DNA of 64,000 bases, taken from the NCBI GenBank assembly GCA_023244855.1, contig JAHFLO010000001.1:5895-69894 (forward strand). Direction: 5' to 3'. The stretch is from Candidatus Harrisonbacteria bacterium (GTDB taxonomy: Bacteria > Patescibacteriota > Minisyncoccia > UBA6257 > UBA11618). Position 1 is the stretch's first letter; every line of letters begins with the position of its first letter. Of the stretch, positions 1-48,703 are shown piece after piece. The translations under genes were made by a program, and so were the position numbers. The notes below the pieces were generated by a model that was given only the letters and a program-made list of their open reading frames with translations, was not told where the DNA came from and ran no database searches.

Positions 1-1436
1 TTTATGGCGTCCGCATAGATTATCTGCCCCTTGGCATACGTGCCGATGCCCGTACCGCCGCGCGGCGTATCTAAAATGCCGCTCGTAATTTTCCCTGCGT
101 CCAAGTTCGGGATATCGGCTGCTGTAAGGGTTGGCAAACGAGCTGCATTAATAGTGCCGCTTGTAATTTTTCCGGCATCCAAATTAGGAATATCAGCAGC
201 CACGAGATTGCGGAACGTTGGTGCGCCTGCGGCCGTACCCGAAGAGGGACCTGCTAAAATATCGTTCGGCTGCTGCGTCTTCCATGCGAAGCTTAGCGTA
301 CCCGTATCCGTTACGGGTGACCCGGCAACGAGAAATTCTGCAGAGGGCGCCGAAAGACCCACGGAACTCACCGTCCCACCGCCGCCAGAGGACTTCGAAG
401 TCCAAGAAAGCGTGCCATCAGTATCCGTCGTGAGCACGAGCCCGTCGGCTGCGGGGGCAGCTACAGGGAAAGTGAAGGTGTTTGCGCCAAATTTTATCTG
501 CCGATTCGGAATGGAGACGAGCTTATCAAAAGAGGTATTTTCCAAAAAAGTCACATCAGAGGAAGTAAGACTCATAAGCGACTTAAGGTTGCTCGTAGGA
601 TTATTTAAGTCGGAAGTAAAGCCGACAAGTAATTTCGGGCGCGTAAACCGTATTAAGTCGTTCGTACCGTCACCAGTGGTACTAATACTGCCCCCTCTCG
701 TCCGGAAATCGTTCGCGTAAATAACACCCGCAACTTCGAGCTCGCTTTGGGGGTTTGTAATGCCGATACCAACCCTACCGTTATTTAAAATAGAAACGGA
801 TTCCGATCCGTCACCAGAATCAAGAATACTTAAACGATAATTCGATGCGTCCGTCGCCGTGGTACGCACCTTAAAACCCTTATTAGCTGCCGCCGAACCG
901 TTCCAGCCAGAGCCCTGAAGTAGAAGGCCTGCAGAATGGAAGCCCTGCGTGCCGGCAGTTGCCGTCCCTAATGGCTCACCCGTAAGGGTTCCCGCAGACG
1001 TATCGGATACGAAATTACCCACGCGGACGGCGTTCATAGCGTACGGCGCAGGGGCGAAAGCGACACGCGGCGAGGCTTCAGCGTCATTTTCAATCGTCAC
1101 GCCCAAGTAGAGCGGCGTCGTAAACGTAAGCGTACTTGGAAACGCCTCGCAACTACCCATCTGCACGGAGAAATAACCGTTCGAATCCGGCGTTACTTTG
1201 GCGCATGCGCCGGAAGACTGACTGTAGGATTCAGTCCATAGGGCCGTGCCGCCCGTTGCCGCGGAATAGAGGGAGAAGGATACTTTCGTCGCCGTGGTGA
1301 TTGCCGCGCCCGCCGTCGTCCGTAAGCGTGACTGGTAGTTTATAACGGCAGGGACGGCCGCTTGTGCGGAAAAAACCGCGCATAAAAGCGCCGCCGTTAT
1401 GGCCGCCCCGAATCCGTATGAGCGATTTCTTTTCAT
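1..1436 (-). CDS. Large secreted surface protein, N-terminal part (partial, continues beyond window start); tail-fibre-like repeats
   Basis: Absent from the ORF track because it is open at the window edge. The reverse strand has ATG at 1436 (MKRNRSYGFGAAITAALLCAVFSAQA, signal-peptide-like) and stays open to nt 1. It carries two AADIPNLDAGKITSG repeats and a GGTGIG motif. The + ORF 31..720 is its antisense shadow. Confidence 0.6.
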   Translation of the reverse strand, partial: MKRNRSYGFGAAITAALLCAVFSAQAAVPAVINYQSRLRTTAGAAITTATKVSFSLYSAATGGTALWTESYSQSSGACAKVTPDSNGYFSVQMGSCEAFPSTLTFTTPLYLGVTIENDAEASPRVAFAPAPYAMNAVRVGNFVSDTSAGTLTGEPLGTATAGTQGFHSAGLLLQGSGWNGSAAANKGFKVRTTATDASNYRLSILDSGDGSESVSILNNGRVGIGITNPQSELEVAGVIYANDFRTRGGSISTTGDGTNDLIRFTRPKLLVGFTSDLNNPTSNLKSLMSLTSSDVTFLENTSFDKLVSIPNRQIKFGANTFTFPVAAPAADGLVLTTDTDGTLSWTSKSSGGGGTVSSVGLSAPSAEFLVAGSPVTDTGTLSFAWKTQQPNDILAGPSSGTAAGAPTFRNLVAADIPNLDAGKITSGTINAARLPTLTAADIPNLDAGKITSGILDTPRGGTGIGTYAKGQIIYADAI

Positions 1437-2347: not shown

Positions 2348-2480
2348 TTAAAACGTCACGCCTCACTTCGTGACTTCCTTAATACTATCATTATGTAAAC
2401 GAATACTATGTGTGGATAAGTATGGAAATGCGAACCCCTTCTAACCCATCCCCGTTCGATTCCGCCCACGGTCATCCAAG

Positions 2481-2518
2481 CATACGAAAATACCCCGATA
2501 TCGGGGTATTTTCGTATG
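2481..2518. terminator. Perfect 38-nt palindromic hairpin directly after tRNA-Ala (bidirectional terminator-like)
   Basis: catacgaaaataccccgata|tcggggtattttcgtatg, with A/T runs flanking the GC core on both strands. Confidence 0.7.
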
Positions 2519-2589
2519 TGGACCTAGGCGGAATCGAACCGCCGCCTCGTCAATGCGAATGACGCGTTCTGCCCCTGAACTATAGGCCC
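2519..2589 (-). tRNA. tRNA-Ala (anticodon CGC)
   Basis: Hand-folded cloverleaf: acceptor GGGCCTA/TAGGTCC with G3:U70, anticodon arm CGTCA-TTCGCAT-TGACG, T arm GGCGG-TTCGATT-CCGCC, discriminator A. Confidence 0.85.
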
Positions 2590-2740: not shown

Positions 2741-3742
2741 CTAACGCCCAGCGTCGCGATGATACGCATTCAAAAGCGTGTAGAGCAAGCTTATCGCCAA
2801 AGGCCCCAGCACAAACCCCGTAGGGCCAAAGAGCGCCATGCCGCCCAAAACCGAAAGTAATATGACGAATGGATGTAACGATACCCCGCGCCCGATAAGC
2901 TTCGGCCCGATGAAGTTATCTATCATACCCACCACGAATACGCCGTACACAAAAAGCCCTGCGGCGAATGCCGATGACCCTTGCAAAAAGAGATATGCCA
3001 CAGCGGGTGCTACCGTAAGCGCCGTGCCAACCCCCGGAATTAAAGCGGTCACGACCGTCACACTCCCCCATAAGATGGCATTCGGTATGCCAAATATAAG
3101 GAAACCGATCATAGCAAGCAAACCCTGCACTAACGCCATCAAAAGCCGCCCCGTCACAATAGAATTCACTGCGCGGCCGAGCATACGCGCAATTTCTTCA
3201 TCGTCTTCGTCCATAAGAGGGCTCAGGGATATAAACGCGCGGCGAAACGCGGCACCATCTTTCAAAAAATAATACAGCGCCATAATAAAAAGAATTATAT
3301 CCACAAAAAACTTAGCGACACCCGAAACAACGACCCCTACGTTGCCCGCGAGCCAATTAAGCGCTTCTTTGGCGTAACTTCCTATATCAAACGGCAATGA
3401 ATCACCCACAAACCCCCGCACGGCGTCGAACACCGTCCCTGCCGTACCACTCGTTTCGAGCGCATGATAGACGCCTGCCGCCTCCCCTGCTACCTGCGTA
3501 CCAAGCAATGTAAGCGGAGCGACAATAACAAGAAGCACAAGCACGGTCGTTATTGCCGCAGCAATTCCCGCATGGTTACGTACTGCTCCTTTTATTTTTT
3601 TATACGGCGTCTGAAAGGCAACGGCAAAAACCGCAGCGAGCACAATCGGCGCAAAGAACGGCTTTAATATCAAAAAGGCGACGGTAAACATGGCGCCCAA
3701 AAGGGCGAGGAGGAAATAAAACGAAAGTGCTTTAGGCGGCAT
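2741..3742 (-). CDS. AI-2E family transporter (PerM/UPF0118-like permease)
   Basis: Multi-TM protein with the family-typical layout. I place the start at internal Met MPPKALSFYF (3742) because a terminator hairpin and a TATACT box lie inside the longer track ORF (to 3793). Confidence 0.8.
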   Translation of the reverse strand: MPPKALSFYFLLALLGAMFTVAFLILKPFFAPIVLAAVFAVAFQTPYKKIKGAVRNHAGIAAAITTVLVLLVIVAPLTLLGTQVAGEAAGVYHALETSGTAGTVFDAVRGFVGDSLPFDIGSYAKEALNWLAGNVGVVVSGVAKFFVDIILFIMALYYFLKDGAAFRRAFISLSPLMDEDDEEIARMLGRAVNSIVTGRLLMALVQGLLAMIGFLIFGIPNAILWGSVTVVTALIPGVGTALTVAPAVAYLFLQGSSAFAAGLFVYGVFVVGMIDNFIGPKLIGRGVSLHPFVILLSVLGGMALFGPTGFVLGPLAISLLYTLLNAYHRDAGR

Positions 3743-6874: not shown

Positions 6875-6955
6875 ATAAATGTATCCCTATCGTATCAGAC
6901 GAATACCCGATTCGCCATTCAACGCATTCTTAGATAGAATCACGAGAAGTAAGAA

Positions 6956-7027
6956 GTCCTCGTGGTGAAATGGATATCACTACTGCCTTCGAAGCAGTCG
7001 TTGAAGGTTCGAGTCCTTCCGAGGGCA
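6956..7027 (+). tRNA. tRNA-Arg (anticodon UCG)
   Basis: Acceptor GTCCTCG/CGAGGGC, anticodon arm ACTGC-CTTCGAA-GCAGT, T arm GAAGG-TTCGAGT-CCTTC, discriminator A. 72 nt. Confidence 0.85.
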
Positions 7028-7069
7028 CAAAATAAAACCCCCTATAATAGGGGGTTTTATTTTGTGCCC
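7023..7069. terminator. Long palindromic terminator overlapping the tRNA-Arg 3' end
   Basis: gggcacaaaataaaaccccctat-a-atagggggttttattttgtgccc, with 23-bp arms. Confidence 0.7.
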
Positions 7070-7070
7070 A

Positions 7071-7175
7071 AGGACTCGAACCTATGGCGACGTTCGAATT
7101 CATCCAGAGCTTATGCGAGGTTAGAATTCGATAAGGAGTGCCAGAGGGAAGCGCAGCGACGAGGAAGGTCCTTAT
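7071..7175. repeat. Structured intergenic element, copy A (inverted pseudo-copy of the tRNA-Arg 3' half plus the two-hairpin module)
   Basis: aaggactcgaacct (7070-7083) is the reverse complement of the tRNA T arm (7005-7018). Hairpin 1: cgaattc[ATCCAGAGCTTATGCGAGGTTA]gaattcg (7095-7130). Hairpin 2: ataagga[..CAGAGGGAAGCGCAGCGACGAGGAAGG]tccttat (7131-7175). Confidence 0.7.
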
Positions 7176-7310
7176 ATCAGCAGCTTATATTATTTGACAT
7201 GATTGCTAATTCCGTGCCATAATAGGCACGCGTTGTTACACGCACGGAAACCTTGAAAACCGAATAGTTTAGAACCTGTTTTCCCTAACCCCTTTGGAGG
7301 AGACTCTGCG

Positions 7311-11917: not shown

Positions 11918-11956
11918 CAAAAACAATAACCCCAAACAGGGGTTATTGTTTTTGTG
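11916..11956. terminator. Palindromic terminator after tRNA-Glu
   Basis: cacaaaaacaataacccc-aaaca-ggggttattgtttttgtg. Confidence 0.75.
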
Positions 11957-12052
11957 CGACGAAGGAGGTTTTGCGATTTATCCCGAGCTTAAGCGAGGTT
12001 AAAATCGCAAAATTTCGTCAGAGGGAAACGAAGTGACGATGACGATCATTTT
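11957..12052. repeat. Structured intergenic element, copy B (two-hairpin module)
   Basis: Hairpin 1: gcgattt[ATCCCGAGCTTAAGCGAGGTTA]aaatcgc (11973-12008). Hairpin 2: aaaat.tcgtc[AGAGGGAAACGAAGTGACGAT]gacga.catttt (12009-12052). Confidence 0.7.
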
Positions 12053-17119: not shown

Positions 17120-17318
17120 GATTAAAAAACTATAATGCCACGGAATAAATAATAACGGAAGATGAATCGTCCTCGTAGAAAGAACTTCCTTATTGCTTCG
17201 CTTCCCTCGGAAGAAATTTTGCAATTTCAACCTCGTAAACTCGGGATGAATTGCAAAACCTCCTCCGGACGTGATTCAAAAACTCTAACCTCGCTATGCT
17301 CGGGAGATTTTTTTCATC

Positions 17319-21060: not shown

Positions 21061-21093
21061 GACGCGACAGCCACTTGGTCGTCGCGTCTTTTT
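21061..21093 (+). terminator. Rho-independent terminator
   Basis: gacgcgac-agccacttg-gtcgtcgcgtc followed by ttttt. Confidence 0.75.
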
Positions 21094-21098
21094 GATTT

Positions 21099-21189
21099 AA
21101 AAGTTATCCCGATCCGCCAGTGCGCGGAGAGGTTAAAACTTTTCAATCATGTCCGGAGGGAAGCGAAGCGACGAGGACGATTCATTGAA
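21099..21189. repeat. Structured intergenic element, copy C (two-hairpin module, not next to a tRNA)
   Basis: Hairpin 1: aaaagtt[ATCCCGAtccgccagtGCGcgGAGAGGTTAa]aactttt (21099-21143). Hairpin 2: ttcaatca[tgtcCGGAGGGAAGCGAAGCGACGAGGACGAt]tcattgaa (21142-21189). Confidence 0.65.
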
Positions 21190-21213
21190 ACTAACCCCTA
21201 AACCTGCTAGAAT
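21185..21213 (+). promoter_or_regulatory. Promoter TTGAAA-17-TAGAAT; the ATG lies 7 nt after the -10 box (leaderless mRNA predicted)
   Basis: ttgaaa ctaacccctaaacctgc tagaat acggct ATG(21220). Confidence 0.55.
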
Positions 21214-34357: not shown

Positions 34358-34512
34358 AGTTCGCTACTCCCTCAACTACGTACATTGGACTTGGAAAAGA
34401 AAGAGGTGCGACGCTGCGCCTCTCGCCGAGTGTATCTTAAAATAATCCTATAACCGGCGTTTTTCAAGTATGCGTTGCCATAATCCCCTGTCGTTGCTAT
34501 ATTCACAGCCAT

Positions 34513-34587
34513 GGGCGCCTAGCTCAGTGGTAGAGCGCTTCTTTTACACAGAAGATGTCGGGGGTTCGATTCCCTTGGCGCCCACCA
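34513..34587 (+). tRNA. tRNA-Val (anticodon UAC), CCA encoded
   Basis: Acceptor GGGCGCC/GGCGCCC, anticodon arm CTTCT-TTTACAC-AGAAG, T arm GGGGG-TTCGATT-CCCTT, ends ACCA. Confidence 0.85.
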
Positions 34588-34625
34588 ATAATAAAAGCCC
34601 TTATTTGGGGCTTTTATTATTGGTG
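34583..34625. terminator. Palindromic terminator overlapping the tRNA-Val 3' end
   Basis: caccaataataaaagccc-ttatttg-gggcttttattattggtg. Confidence 0.75.
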
Positions 34626-34743
34626 ATTGCACTAGGGGGAATCGAACCCGGAGGGGCGAGAGTTTTTAATGAGCTCGCGAAGCGAGCGATTATAAAAACC
34701 GATGTCTCGACCGCAGGAAGAGGCGATTCCCTTGGCGCCCACC
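34626..34743. repeat. Structured intergenic element, copy F (inverted pseudo T arm, core, direct copy of the tRNA-Val 3' end)
   Basis: gggggaatcgaacccgg (34635-51) is inverted relative to the tRNA T arm. The core GGCGAGaGTTTTT..hairpin..AAAAAC..GTCTCGACCG is shared with copy G. gattcccttggcgcccacc (34725-43) is identical to 34568-86. Confidence 0.7.
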
Positions 34744-34834
34744 TTCCTTTTTCTTATTGACGCTCCCCCGCCGCTACGGTATATATATCCCCAGCACCGA
34801 CCCATTCGTAGGACTTTTTAAACGGAGCCACACC

Positions 34835-43942: not shown

Positions 43943-44013
43943 GCAGGTATAGTACAATGGTAGTACGTTTGGTTGCCAATCAAAATACACGGGTTCGATT
44001 CCCGTTACCTGCT
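43943..44013 (+). tRNA. tRNA-Gly (anticodon GCC)
   Basis: Acceptor GCAGGTA/TACCTGC, anticodon loop TTGCCAA, discriminator U, T arm ACGGG-TTCGATT-CCCGT. Confidence 0.85.
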
Positions 44014-44022
44014 CAGTCCAAC

Positions 44023-44051
44023 AAAAAGACTCCCTATAAGGGAGTCTTTTT
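44023..44051. terminator. Bidirectional terminator shared by the convergent tRNA-Gly and tRNA-Arg
   Basis: aaaaagactccc-tataa-gggagtcttttt. Confidence 0.8.
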
Positions 44052-44066
44052 GTTTGCTTTAGACAG

Positions 44067-44138
44067 TGCGCCCACGAGGAATCGAACCTCGATTAGAGGA
44101 TCCGCAATCCTCCGTTCTATCCATTAAACTATGGGCGC
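44067..44138 (-). tRNA. tRNA-Arg (anticodon GCG)
   Basis: Acceptor GCGCCCA/TGGGCGC, anticodon arm GAGGA-TTGCGGA-TCCTC, T arm CGAGG-TTCGATT-CCTCG. Confidence 0.8.
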
Positions 44139-47943: not shown

Positions 47944-48027
47944 GGAGGGATAGCCTAGCGGTTAAGGCAAGGGATTGCTAATCCCTGGCTCGAAAGGGCC
48001 TCGTGGGTTCGAATCCCACTCCCTCCG
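47944..48027 (+). tRNA. tRNA-Ser (anticodon GCU)
   Basis: Acceptor GGAGGGA/TCCCTCC, anticodon arm AGGGA-TTGCTAA-TCCCT, long variable arm, T arm GTGGG-TTCGAAT-CCCAC, discriminator G. Confidence 0.85.
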
Positions 48028-48031
48028 CAGA

Positions 48032-48071
48032 ACAAACAAAAATACCCCCTATGTGGGGTATTTTTGTTTGT
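48032..48071. terminator. Palindromic terminator after tRNA-Ser
   Basis: acaaacaaaaatacccc-ctatgt-ggggtatttttgtttgt. Confidence 0.75.
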
Positions 48072-48232
48072 CTTGTGAAAGAGTGGAATTCGAACCGAAG
48101 GCGAGCGTTTTTCCCCAAGCGCTAAAGCGCTTGGTCGAAAAACGCGAAGTCTCGACCGAGCTTGCGAGGGAGAGGCGAATCCCACTCTTCCATTGCGTGC
48201 GTAATCGAAAAACGGCAGGCGAATCCCACTCC
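48072..48232. repeat. Structured intergenic element, copy G (homologous to F), with two extra direct copies of the tRNA-Ser T-loop/acceptor segment
   Basis: gagtggaattcgaacc (48081-96) is inverted relative to the tRNA. Core GGCGAGcGTTTTT..ccaagcgc-taaa-gcgcttgg..AAAAACGCG..GTCTCGACCGAGCTTGCGAGG. gaatcccactc recurs at 48177 and 48221 (tRNA copy at 48011). Confidence 0.7.
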
Positions 48233-48703
48233 TCAGTCGCTCTCGCTCTTCACATCCACCCCGCTCCGTAAAACCCCCACAAGCACATCCGCCCCAGCAG
48301 CAACCACAAGAGAGACAAAAATAACCATAAGGCCCATAGCAACGCCACCCGCAATGTCGTCGCCAGGCCGAACTATCATTAAGTAGGCCTCCGGCAGCGC
48401 GACGAGACCAACGAGCAACAGCGCACAGCGCCGTATCGTCCGCATGGCTTTCACAGTTACCCGTGAGAACGCCTTACCCTGTCCTACGCACCCCAACGCC
48501 TTGAATGCGTTATAAACCGCGACGAAAAACGGAATAGACGCCGCATACGCATACGCTAAGAACAAATCGTTGAAGTAAACCTGGAAGAACGTGGCGTCCA
48601 CATTTCTACCCTCGAAGTGAGGCTCCCATAGCATGAAGGTAAGGACACCTATACCGATAAGCACGACGACCGCCTGAAGGAATACTAAGGAGATTCTTTT
48701 CAT
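48233..48703 (-). CDS. Hypothetical 4-TM membrane protein (DUF2975-like, tentative)
   Basis: 156 aa with four hydrophobic helices. Its stop abuts the last tRNA-Ser-like repeat. Confidence 0.5.
   Translation of the reverse strand: MKRISLVFLQAVVVLIGIGVLTFMLWEPHFEGRNVDATFFQVYFNDLFLAYAYAASIPFFVAVYNAFKALGCVGQGKAFSRVTVKAMRTIRRCALLLVGLVALPEAYLMIVRPGDDIAGGVAMGLMVIFVSLVVAAGADVLVGVLRSGVDVKSESD

Follow-up and report, generated by a model that had tools for sequence, protein, structure and literature searches.

Why should four tRNA genes of one bacterial genome each be followed, beyond the terminator, by an inverted copy of a T arm? The question is raised by a 64,000-nt stretch of contig JAHFLO010000001.1 (positions 5,895 to 69,894; Candidatus Harrisonbacteria bacterium), hereafter the window, in which an earlier reading of the letters (the original prediction) had noted such mirrored segments at tRNA-Ala, tRNA-Arg, tRNA-Val and tRNA-Ser and had offered decayed convergent tRNA genes, fold-back duplication or scars of T-loop-targeting elements as their source. 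The analysis described here indicates that the segments belong to composite units with a conserved, structured core. These units are probably non-autonomous insertional elements with flanks copied from the target, and they seem to make up a family, not described before, of structured insertions associated with gene ends in Patescibacteria. The genes of the window are cellular (RecG, ArgRS, CCA-adding enzyme), the 80 closest CCA-adding enzyme loci in GTDB genomes are all from Patescibacteria (Parcubacteria, Paceibacteria and relatives), and the window is part of a Patescibacteria (candidate phyla radiation) genome. ARAGORN called 13 scattered tRNA genes in it, most of which lack an encoded CCA. 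Labels such as L002, L003 or L082 denote compared relative loci or metagenome contigs.

All four mirrored segments were present in the sequence with mirror scores of 13-14, each above every one of 2000 shufflings of the region downstream of its own tRNA (P ≤ 5 × 10−4); the tRNAs Glu, Pro and Ile gave P values of about 0.6 in the same test. The predicted pairing was exact at tRNA-Arg(UCG) (7005-7018 with 7070-7083, 14/14) and was found again at tRNA-Ser (48007-48022 with 48081-48096, 15/16). At tRNA-Ala the mirror GTTCGATTCCGCC was correctly placed at 2454-2466; its partner, given as 2531-2543, lies 4 nt away, the mirror being the reverse complement of 2527-2539 and extending with small indels via the acceptor 3' strand into the terminator. 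The tRNA-Val pairing was also recovered, with the exact 13/13 part, GGGTTCGATTCCC, at 34562-34574 and 34637-34649 instead of the 34558-34575/34635-34651 noted before. In a matrix of cognate and non-cognate comparisons, the Ala, Arg and Ser mirrors scored 13.5-14 with their own tRNA and 10-11.5 with the best other one. These three are thus own-tRNA specific and exceed what the universal T loop alone would give. The Val mirror scored 13 against tRNA-Val but 14-15 against Pro, Ala and Gly, and is therefore generic, nothing beyond a T arm. The motif GGTTCGAWTCC (at most one mismatch) had 15 occurrences in the window, five of which lie outside tRNAs; 2.9 were expected. As the original prediction had stated, the copies are unable to fold as tRNAs: ARAGORN called none there, and cmscan with Rfam models found no tRNA on the mirror strand at E ≤ 10 in 6900-7250 (Arg) or 34480-34800 (Val).

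The mirrors were found to stand in a recurrent order of parts. Read in gene sense, a unit comprises the gene end (first direct repeat, DR1), usually an intrinsic terminator hairpin, the inverted copy (M), the core, and a second direct repeat (DR2). M repeats, in inverted orientation, the stretch of the gene at which DR1 begins; in tRNAs this is the T loop and T-stem 3' strand and sometimes the acceptor strand. The core, 70-130 nt long, is conserved and structured; its hairpins covary, and its gene-sense strand is rich in purines. DR2 is a direct copy of the gene from the DR1 start point to the gene end, running in tRNAs from the middle of the T loop to the 3' end. In the recurrent layout, seen in the window and at many tRNA species of related genomes, M ends in ..GAATCGAAC and DR2 begins in the T loop. 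Since M is the complement of the 3' half of the tRNA beside it, DR1, terminator and M together form a long terminator-centred palindrome. The units are small, only 100-250 nt. Three core classes occur in the window: B1 at tRNA-Val and tRNA-Ser, C at tRNA-Arg and tRNA-Glu, and, from comparison by eye, a truncated A at tRNA-Ala. The class A consensus is GGRAAG GGGTCGG.. CCGYNNNGGA .. AACCGNNGGKT .. GCGACG, and classes B1 and B2 both terminate in ..AGGCGA.

At tRNA-Val and tRNA-Ser the B1 core spans about 75-80 nt (GGCGAG-GTTTTT-hairpin-AAAAAC-..GTCTCGACC..GAGGCGA) and precedes a direct repeat of the tRNA 3' end. The features are as follows.

34513-34587, plus strand: tRNA-Val(UAC), called by ARAGORN; DR1 is 34567-34586, CGATTCCCTTGGCGCCCACC.
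34583-34625: Val terminator palindrome, CACCAATAATAAAAGCCC TTATTT GGGGCTTTTATTATTGGTG.
34637-34649, plus strand: M(Val), generic T-arm mirror, GGGAATCGAACCC; the L086 orthologue has AAGGGATTGAGCCC.
34650-34723, plus strand: class B1 core, GGAGGGGCGAG-GTTTTTAAT-hairpin-ATTATAAAAAC-CGATGTCTCGACC...GAGG; kept in L086 with a compensatory hairpin tip.
34724-34743, plus strand: DR2(Val), exact direct copy of 34567-34586 (blastn, 20/20).
47944-48028, plus strand: tRNA-Ser(GCU), called by ARAGORN.
48033-48071: Ser terminator palindrome, ACAAACAAAAATACCCC(C) TATGT GGGGTATTTTTGTTTGT.
48081-48096, plus strand: M(Ser), GAGTGGAATTCGAACC, mirroring 48007-48022; L213 has AAGAGTGGGATTCGAACC.
48097-48176, plus strand: class B1 core, fold z = -4.75.
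48177-48192, plus strand: DR2(Ser), CGAATCCCACTCTTCC, pairing with M.
48201-48232, plus strand: third, partial copy, TCGAAAAACG...GGCGAATCCCACTCC.

The tRNA-Ser gene is thus followed by two successive partial copies of its 3' end (48177-48192 and 48220-48232), and 48201-48232 is a remnant of a further tandem unit.

The remaining tRNA units of the window carry class A or class C cores.

2518-2589, minus strand: tRNA-Ala(CGC), called by ARAGORN; Rfam 64.5 bits.
2527-2539, GGCGGAATCGAAC on the plus strand: mirror partner within tRNA-Ala (T loop and T-stem 3' strand), read from the sequence.
2481-2518: bidirectional terminator palindrome after tRNA-Ala, CATACGAAAATACCCC GATATC GGGGTATTTTCGTATG, read from the sequence.
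2454-2478, minus strand: M(Ala), inverted T loop, T-stem 3' strand and acceptor 3' strand, plus strand GTTCGATTCCGCCcAcGGTCatCCA; score 13.5, P ≤ 5 × 10−4.
2429-2453, minus strand: apparent 5' part (25 nt) of a truncated class A core, in tRNA sense GAAC GGGGATGGGTTAGAAGGGGTTCGCA against GAACGAGGGATGGGTCGGAAGGG of L072, compared by eye.
6956-7028, plus strand: tRNA-Arg(UCG), called by ARAGORN.
7023-7069: terminator palindrome including the tRNA-Arg end, GGGCACAAAATAAAACCCCC TATAAT AGGGGGTTTTATTTTGTGCCC.
7070-7083, plus strand: M(Arg), AAGGACTCGAACCT, exact reverse complement of 7005-7018; P ≤ 5 × 10−4.
7084-7176, plus strand: class C core, stem TTCGAATTC/GAATTCGA with internal loop ATCCAGA...GAGGTTA, then CAGAGGGAAGCGCAGCGACGAGGAAGGTCCTT.
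11919-12052, plus strand: tRNA-Glu terminator, then class C core; no T-arm mirror, only GCAC/GTGC mirrored.

In class C (Arg, Glu) the terminator is followed by a stem, ATCCCGA, a mini-hairpin, GAGGTTA, a stem and then ..GGAGGGAAGCGAAGCGACGAGGA. The Glu arrangement is kept in L003 with a covarying stem. The similarity at tRNA-Arg that had been traced back to the anticodon-loop TTCGAA has another source: this TTCGAATTC is one arm of the covarying class C core stem, and the same stem is present in an L002 copy that adjoins no tRNA. Further class C copies lie directly after protein-gene terminators at 17168-17300 (minus strand; two tandem units) and 21092-21190 (plus strand), with no adjoining tRNA and no mirrored or direct target copy. 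The mini-hairpin CCGCC-AGNN-GGCGG was observed as a recurrent optional insert within cores and within a pseudo-tRNA (window 21113-21128; L003 6275-6290; L060, L072 and L008).

Comparison with orthologous loci indicated that these units come and go as wholes. Nothing in L003 corresponds to the Ala block (2429-2517, ~88 nt), the orthologous site there holding just 8 nt (acacggag). At tRNA-Arg, the terminator, M and core (~150 nt, ~7033-7186, boundaries estimated from the L002 alignment) are absent in both L002 and L003, which are among the closest relatives; the flanks of the insert align with both, and the window's tRNA-Arg allele and promoter region differ from both. Conversely, a class C copy of ~139 nt follows the next gene in L002, at a place where the window lacks such a copy; it shares with the window's Arg copy the stem TTCGAATTC/GAATTCGA and an outer AAGGAC..GTCCT(T). 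The Arg, Ala and class C differences between relatives are insertions or deletions of whole units. At tRNA-Val, an element-free site would read tRNA-Val joined to TTCCTTTTTCTTATTGAC; in L082 the intact 3' half of the window's tRNA-Val adjoins the same downstream flank with no element between.

Two of these loci showed further changes. Over window 6920-7028, tRNA-Arg(UCG) differs from that of L002 at ~14/73 positions (counted from the alignment) and the promoter region does not align, and tRNA-Glu and tRNA-Ala are identical to those of L002; judged from these alignments, the whole tRNA-Arg cassette looks exchanged. L082 (3430-3640) has a different tRNA-Val allele, then ~110 nt, then a displaced 41-nt 3' half that is identical to the window tRNA-Val and begins in the anticodon loop, with M and core both absent. 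This is an independent, second kind of end-replacing event, and the tRNA loci of the lineage are recurrent sites of end-replacing rearrangement.

The arrangement is not peculiar to the window. Across 281 tRNAs at 82 loci, mirrored 3' ends with a score of at least 10 were found downstream of ~10% of tRNAs, compared with 1-2% in upstream controls, and about 30 of some 280 tRNAs had a 13-nt copy of the T-stem and acceptor 3' strand 40-260 nt downstream, with almost none kilobases off. Different tRNAs of one genome may have a core subtype in common (Gly/Pro in L030, Leu/Pro in L024, Met/Pro in L063), and M and DR2 follow each tRNA. The cores are conserved as structures. In class A, several pairs were swapped from AU to GC in 5-9 of 17 sequences, class C stem pairs vary among GC, CG and AU, and B1 showed compensatory changes at tRNA-Val of L086 and tRNA-Ser of L213. 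The gene-sense strand, on which the elements are purine-rich, folds better in 22/25 elements.

A strict class A pattern matched at least 120 contigs when searched against metagenomes. Among the 122 class A matches listed, 55 follow tRNAs, covering 34 anticodons, and many others lie at protein-gene ends with the same target-derived flanks, including the 3' ends of gyrB, GAPDH and L7/L12 and, on the other strand, the 5' ends of dnaK and a GTPase gene (read from the encoded peptides). In the matches listed, direct repeats scored at least 14 at 52/66 tRNA sites and 18/54 other sites (0 in shuffled controls), and M scored at least 9 at 27/66 and 10/54, respectively (none in shuffled controls). Repeat length in the strict scan was 14-71 nt at tRNAs and 15-93 nt elsewhere, reaching ~100 nt with a looser alignment. 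The two repeat copies are identical at 73/73 positions in L127, where M is a 15/15 inverted copy of the repeat start, and at 99 of ~100 positions in L116. M is closer to the intact gene copy (DR1) than to DR2 at 49/51 tRNA sites and 17/21 other sites; its partner therefore sits in the gene, and a long palindrome round the gene end is the rule. At five class A sites in protein genes (L127, L146, L119, L130 and L131) the direct repeat ends in or right at the stop or start codon. The stop codons of the two repeat copies differ in L127 (TAA/TGA) and in L146 (TAG/TAA).

With inverted and direct flanks derived from the target, covarying cores, gain and loss between relatives, and occurrence at many gene ends, the cores are probably non-autonomous insertional elements that carry flanks copied from their target. 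We infer that they act as single-stranded nucleic acid, either RNA or single-stranded DNA, and that insertion copies the target in both orientations. The layout most likely arose by copy-choice or a template switch, in replication or in reverse transcription: copying would run to the gene end, back over the start point (M), through the core, and over the gene end again (DR2). As the core has the universal T-loop sequence on either side, spread or gene conversion among tRNA genes might be eased, and a new terminator just after the tRNA would be a side effect at Arg, Ala and Val. More tentatively, and with less than even confidence, we propose an undescribed non-autonomous mobile element of Patescibacteria for which a guided copy-choice or retro-type reaction on a single strand copies the target end inverted (12-25 nt) and direct (13-100 nt) by means of a host or distant trans-acting polymerase or recombinase, leaving unbroken the tRNA and housekeeping genes at whose ends it lands and sometimes adding a new terminator.

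Some negative results exclude other readings: the units contain no open reading frame (ORF), no Rfam family matches, and no enzyme gene recurs nearby, clustering of 886 ORFs within 2.5 kb of 145 cores having returned only recurrent housekeeping families plus a small GIY-YIG-like protein in 6 loci (median distance ~1.6 kb). Several results weigh against the reading as insertional elements. Neither a trans-acting enzyme nor a circular form was found, nor a pair of empty and filled sites for a complete recent insertion, so mobility is argued from comparative evidence only, and the copying route is held with moderate confidence. For complete class A elements, none of 80 genome loci offered an empty site, the flanks of L035 compared with L049/L041 being rearranged, not empty. 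Class C cores (Arg, Glu, 17168-17300, 21092-21190) lack a clear DR2, so the Arg mirror may have a partly different origin: away from any tRNA, the L002 copy likewise has the outer AAGGAC..GTCCT pair. The Val mirror is generic. Template switching alone does not explain the constant core at the second junction, nor why repeats often end at a stop or start codon. G.U counts in the stems formed by M and the direct repeats are symmetric between strands (24 vs 34; 28 vs 24), so that the strand test is uninformative and these repeats show no sign of RNA-level selection. Despite deep divergence (the L086 neighbour protein is only 43% identical), orthologous tRNA-Val and tRNA-Ser sites have kept their B1 units, as would be expected of a host function no less than of a selfish element.

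Such a host function is possible for the conserved B1 units. For the units in general, the likeliest of the rivals, unlikely though it is, is a host-beneficial cis-acting RNA module of the tRNA 3' trailer, transcribed by read-through, in which the tRNA 3' half and DR2 would be alternative partners of M; it might, for instance, mark read-through transcripts for RNase III, serve as a 3' processing guide, or be a GGA/GGAGG-rich protein-binding RNA. Covarying stems, the strong conservation of B1 at orthologous Val and Ser genes of distant relatives, and the better fold and purine-richness of the tRNA-sense strand would all suit such a module. So would the Ser unit, in which M and DR2 share AAGAG/CTCTT against CTCCC of the tRNA, both in the window and in L213. 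In 6/25 units no terminator stands between tRNA and M, and co-transcription is likely there; a strong terminator precedes most units, however, and M matches DR1, not DR2, nearly always. Presence and absence between close relatives also speaks against the module, as does the same core at protein-gene ends with near-identical repeats of 73-100 nt, which a trailer function would not need.

Quite unlikely is the rival that the units are remnants or miniatures, like cis-mobilizable elements (CIMEs), of integrase-driven elements that recombine in the T loop or at gene ends and supply a replacement end, with DR1 and DR2 as the attachment (att) sites attL and attR. The resemblance to tRNA-targeting integrative elements (phages, integrative and conjugative elements, tycheposon-type att sites, and CIMEs as derivatives without genes) is real: a direct repeat of the tRNA 3' part surrounds the insert, starting in the T loop (in the anticodon loop in L082) and reaching the tRNA 3' end, as at classic tRNA att sites; the tRNA is kept intact by an insert-supplied 3' end; tandem units occur (window Ser, L071 Pro), as in tandem accretion; and protein-gene repeats end at the gene boundary, as if the element supplied a replacement end. 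Yet no integrase gene or kilobase-scale element was present at any site examined, no parent element with the same att region was found, and the strict class A pattern gave only 6 matches in IMG/VR viral contigs, all false (repetitive coding sequence with no tRNA near). Units of 100-250 nt with no viral or plasmid counterpart found, adding M and a covarying core and occupying many unrelated protein-gene ends, differ from these elements; such targets are too diverse for a sequence-specific recombinase. A core of ~100 nt separates M from the crossover region, unlike core-type inverted binding sites, and the covariation of the stems indicates a single-stranded structure and not a double-stranded protein site. 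A phage att remnant in the simple sense was rejected for want of an integrase, a kilobase-scale element and a viral copy. The idea of scars left by T-loop-targeting elements stood in so far as the units are insertions, absent at the relatives' Arg and Ala sites, with a repeat boundary in the T loop; it failed in that they are not specific to the T loop and are conserved structured units.

A pure quasi-palindrome extension, in which a template switch at the terminator hairpin inverted the tRNA 3' end with no mobile element and the downstream motifs are unrelated, is very unlikely. The Ala and Arg palindromes do run unbroken from the terminator into the tRNA 3' end, and M matches DR1; the direct-inverted-direct order with its first junction at a hairpin, here the terminator, is that of template-switch products (quasi-palindrome correction; origin-dependent inverted-repeat amplification, ODIRA; duplication-inverted triplication-duplication, DUP-TRP/INV-DUP). 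To this extent the suggested fold-back duplication has a basis. It leaves the core and DR2 unexplained: M always directly precedes one of a few conserved cores, DR2 is present in most units, and the whole block, not M alone, is missing from relatives. Unlike template-switch products, the units have an inverted copy of 12-25 nt and always a foreign conserved core at the second junction, all on a scale of tens of nucleotides.

Decayed convergent tRNA genes that once shared a bidirectional terminator are largely refuted and hardly credible as a source, since, for all that the window holds an intact convergent Gly/Arg pair (43943-44138) and the Val mirror is generic, with a flank as long as an acceptor strand but of different sequence, three of the four mirrors (Ala, Arg, Ser) copy the adjoining tRNA, no tRNA signal at E ≤ 10 was found on the mirror strand at Arg and Val, a conserved non-tRNA core lies beyond M and is followed by a direct copy at Val and Ser, protein-gene ends are built alike, and the orthologous loci (L002/L003 for Arg and Ala, L082/L086 for Val, L213 for Ser), where an intact convergent tRNA was to be looked for, show absence or the same element and never such a gene. 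The pair at 43943-44138 consists of intact tRNA-Gly(GCC) and tRNA-Arg(GCG) with one bidirectional terminator, and its palindrome is limited to that terminator.

Other known identities were also examined. Rfam 15 scans at gathering thresholds of the window and six related loci returned only tRNA and rRNA, and E-value scans of the Arg and Val regions returned nothing relevant; a known ribozyme or non-coding RNA (hepatitis delta virus-like including theta, hammerhead, twister, group I and others) was rejected because no Rfam 15 covariance model matched. Like MITEs (miniature inverted-repeat transposable elements), repetitive extragenic palindromic sequences and bacterial interspersed mosaic elements (REP/BIME) and other small intergenic repeats, the units are short, non-coding, multi-copy, rich in hairpins, strain-polymorphic and often near terminators. 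Unlike them, they have a terminal inverted repeat copied from each target and not owned by the element, and a direct repeat of 13-100 nt (not 2-10 nt) that reproduces the gene end. A MITE was rejected because M differs per site and follows the adjacent gene, the direct repeats are no short target-site duplication of fixed length, and no autonomous relative with a transposase was found, the recurrent families within 2.5 kb of the 145 cores being otherwise housekeeping ones.

A diversity-generating retroelement is contradicted by repeat differences that, read from the aligned copies, are of all kinds or absent, with no adenine bias, and by targets that are tRNAs and housekeeping genes. No reverse transcriptase was among the recurrent gene families near the 145 cores, although no scan aimed at reverse transcriptases was made; a retron was rejected on this lack among the recurrent neighbours. 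A TnpB-type omega-RNA guided by DR2 would have the tRNA of its own element as target, and there are several unrelated cores and no nuclease gene. A minus-strand minihelix mimicking a tRNA was dismissed since most copies leave the acceptor part unpaired.

Group I introns in Patescibacteria tRNA genes interrupt the anticodon loop (35/36), must splice and mostly lack a homing endonuclease gene (PMC13011429). The units share with them the phylum, tRNA targets, a structured RNA and, for the most part, the lack of such an endonuclease gene; they differ in lying outside an intact tRNA and in having no Rfam match, where the introns are ribozymes that Rfam recognises. A T-loop intron was rejected because the tRNA is intact without splicing. 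A full-text literature search found no paper on such units, only those on the group I introns, a different feature. Integron attC sites and the attP hairpin of CTX phage are likewise conserved in structure over sequence, as imperfect hairpins with arms related to the target, and the repeat boundary at tRNA sites, G|TTCGA, resembles the attC core G|TTRRRY; protein-gene sites lack this resemblance. Unlike attC and CTX attP, the units have arms that differ at every site and a conserved multi-stem core as the hairpin loop.

Patescibacteria genomes are tiny and hold little non-coding DNA, yet the units recur at many tRNA and housekeeping-gene ends. The annotation of tRNAs in these genomes is confused by partial copies and long palindromes, for which the units account; the units also create or replace terminators, and mark tRNA loci where whole alleles were swapped between lineages. 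If they are mobile, the target-derived flanks point to an insertion chemistry outside current transposon and integrase models, maybe a sequence-programmable one; if they are functional RNAs instead, they make three new conserved RNA classes in a phylum with few known.

Some further observations were made at or near these loci. At window 1178-1188 the T-loop-like CGTTCGAATCC lies in a stretch with no called tRNA and no ORF of at least 100 aa, and may be another decayed unit. The small GIY-YIG-like protein (MFCVYILRG..YVG.., by reading) is encoded at L033 7643-8153 and at five other loci, within ~1.6 kb of class A cores; this recurrence may be chance. In L008 (5890-6480) the last part of tRNA-Gly(GCC) and a spacer form three repeats with a 74-nt period, and the same locus has a tRNA-Lys followed by a pseudo-copy split by the CCGCCAGCCGGCGG hairpin. 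A free-standing LAGLIDADG ORF (PF00961) is located at L086 3420-3899 on the minus strand, ~1.7 kb from the B1-bearing tRNA-Val locus. Between the tRNA-Ser element and a DUF2975 gene, L213 (3088-3483) has an additional gene of 131 aa that is served by a promoter of its own; the corresponding place in the window (48193-48233) is occupied by the third partial element copy instead. By eye, the inner stems of the L213 tRNA-Ser core (3620-3690) are nearer the window Val core (34660-34700) than the Ser core (48105-48145), which suggests exchange between cores at different loci.

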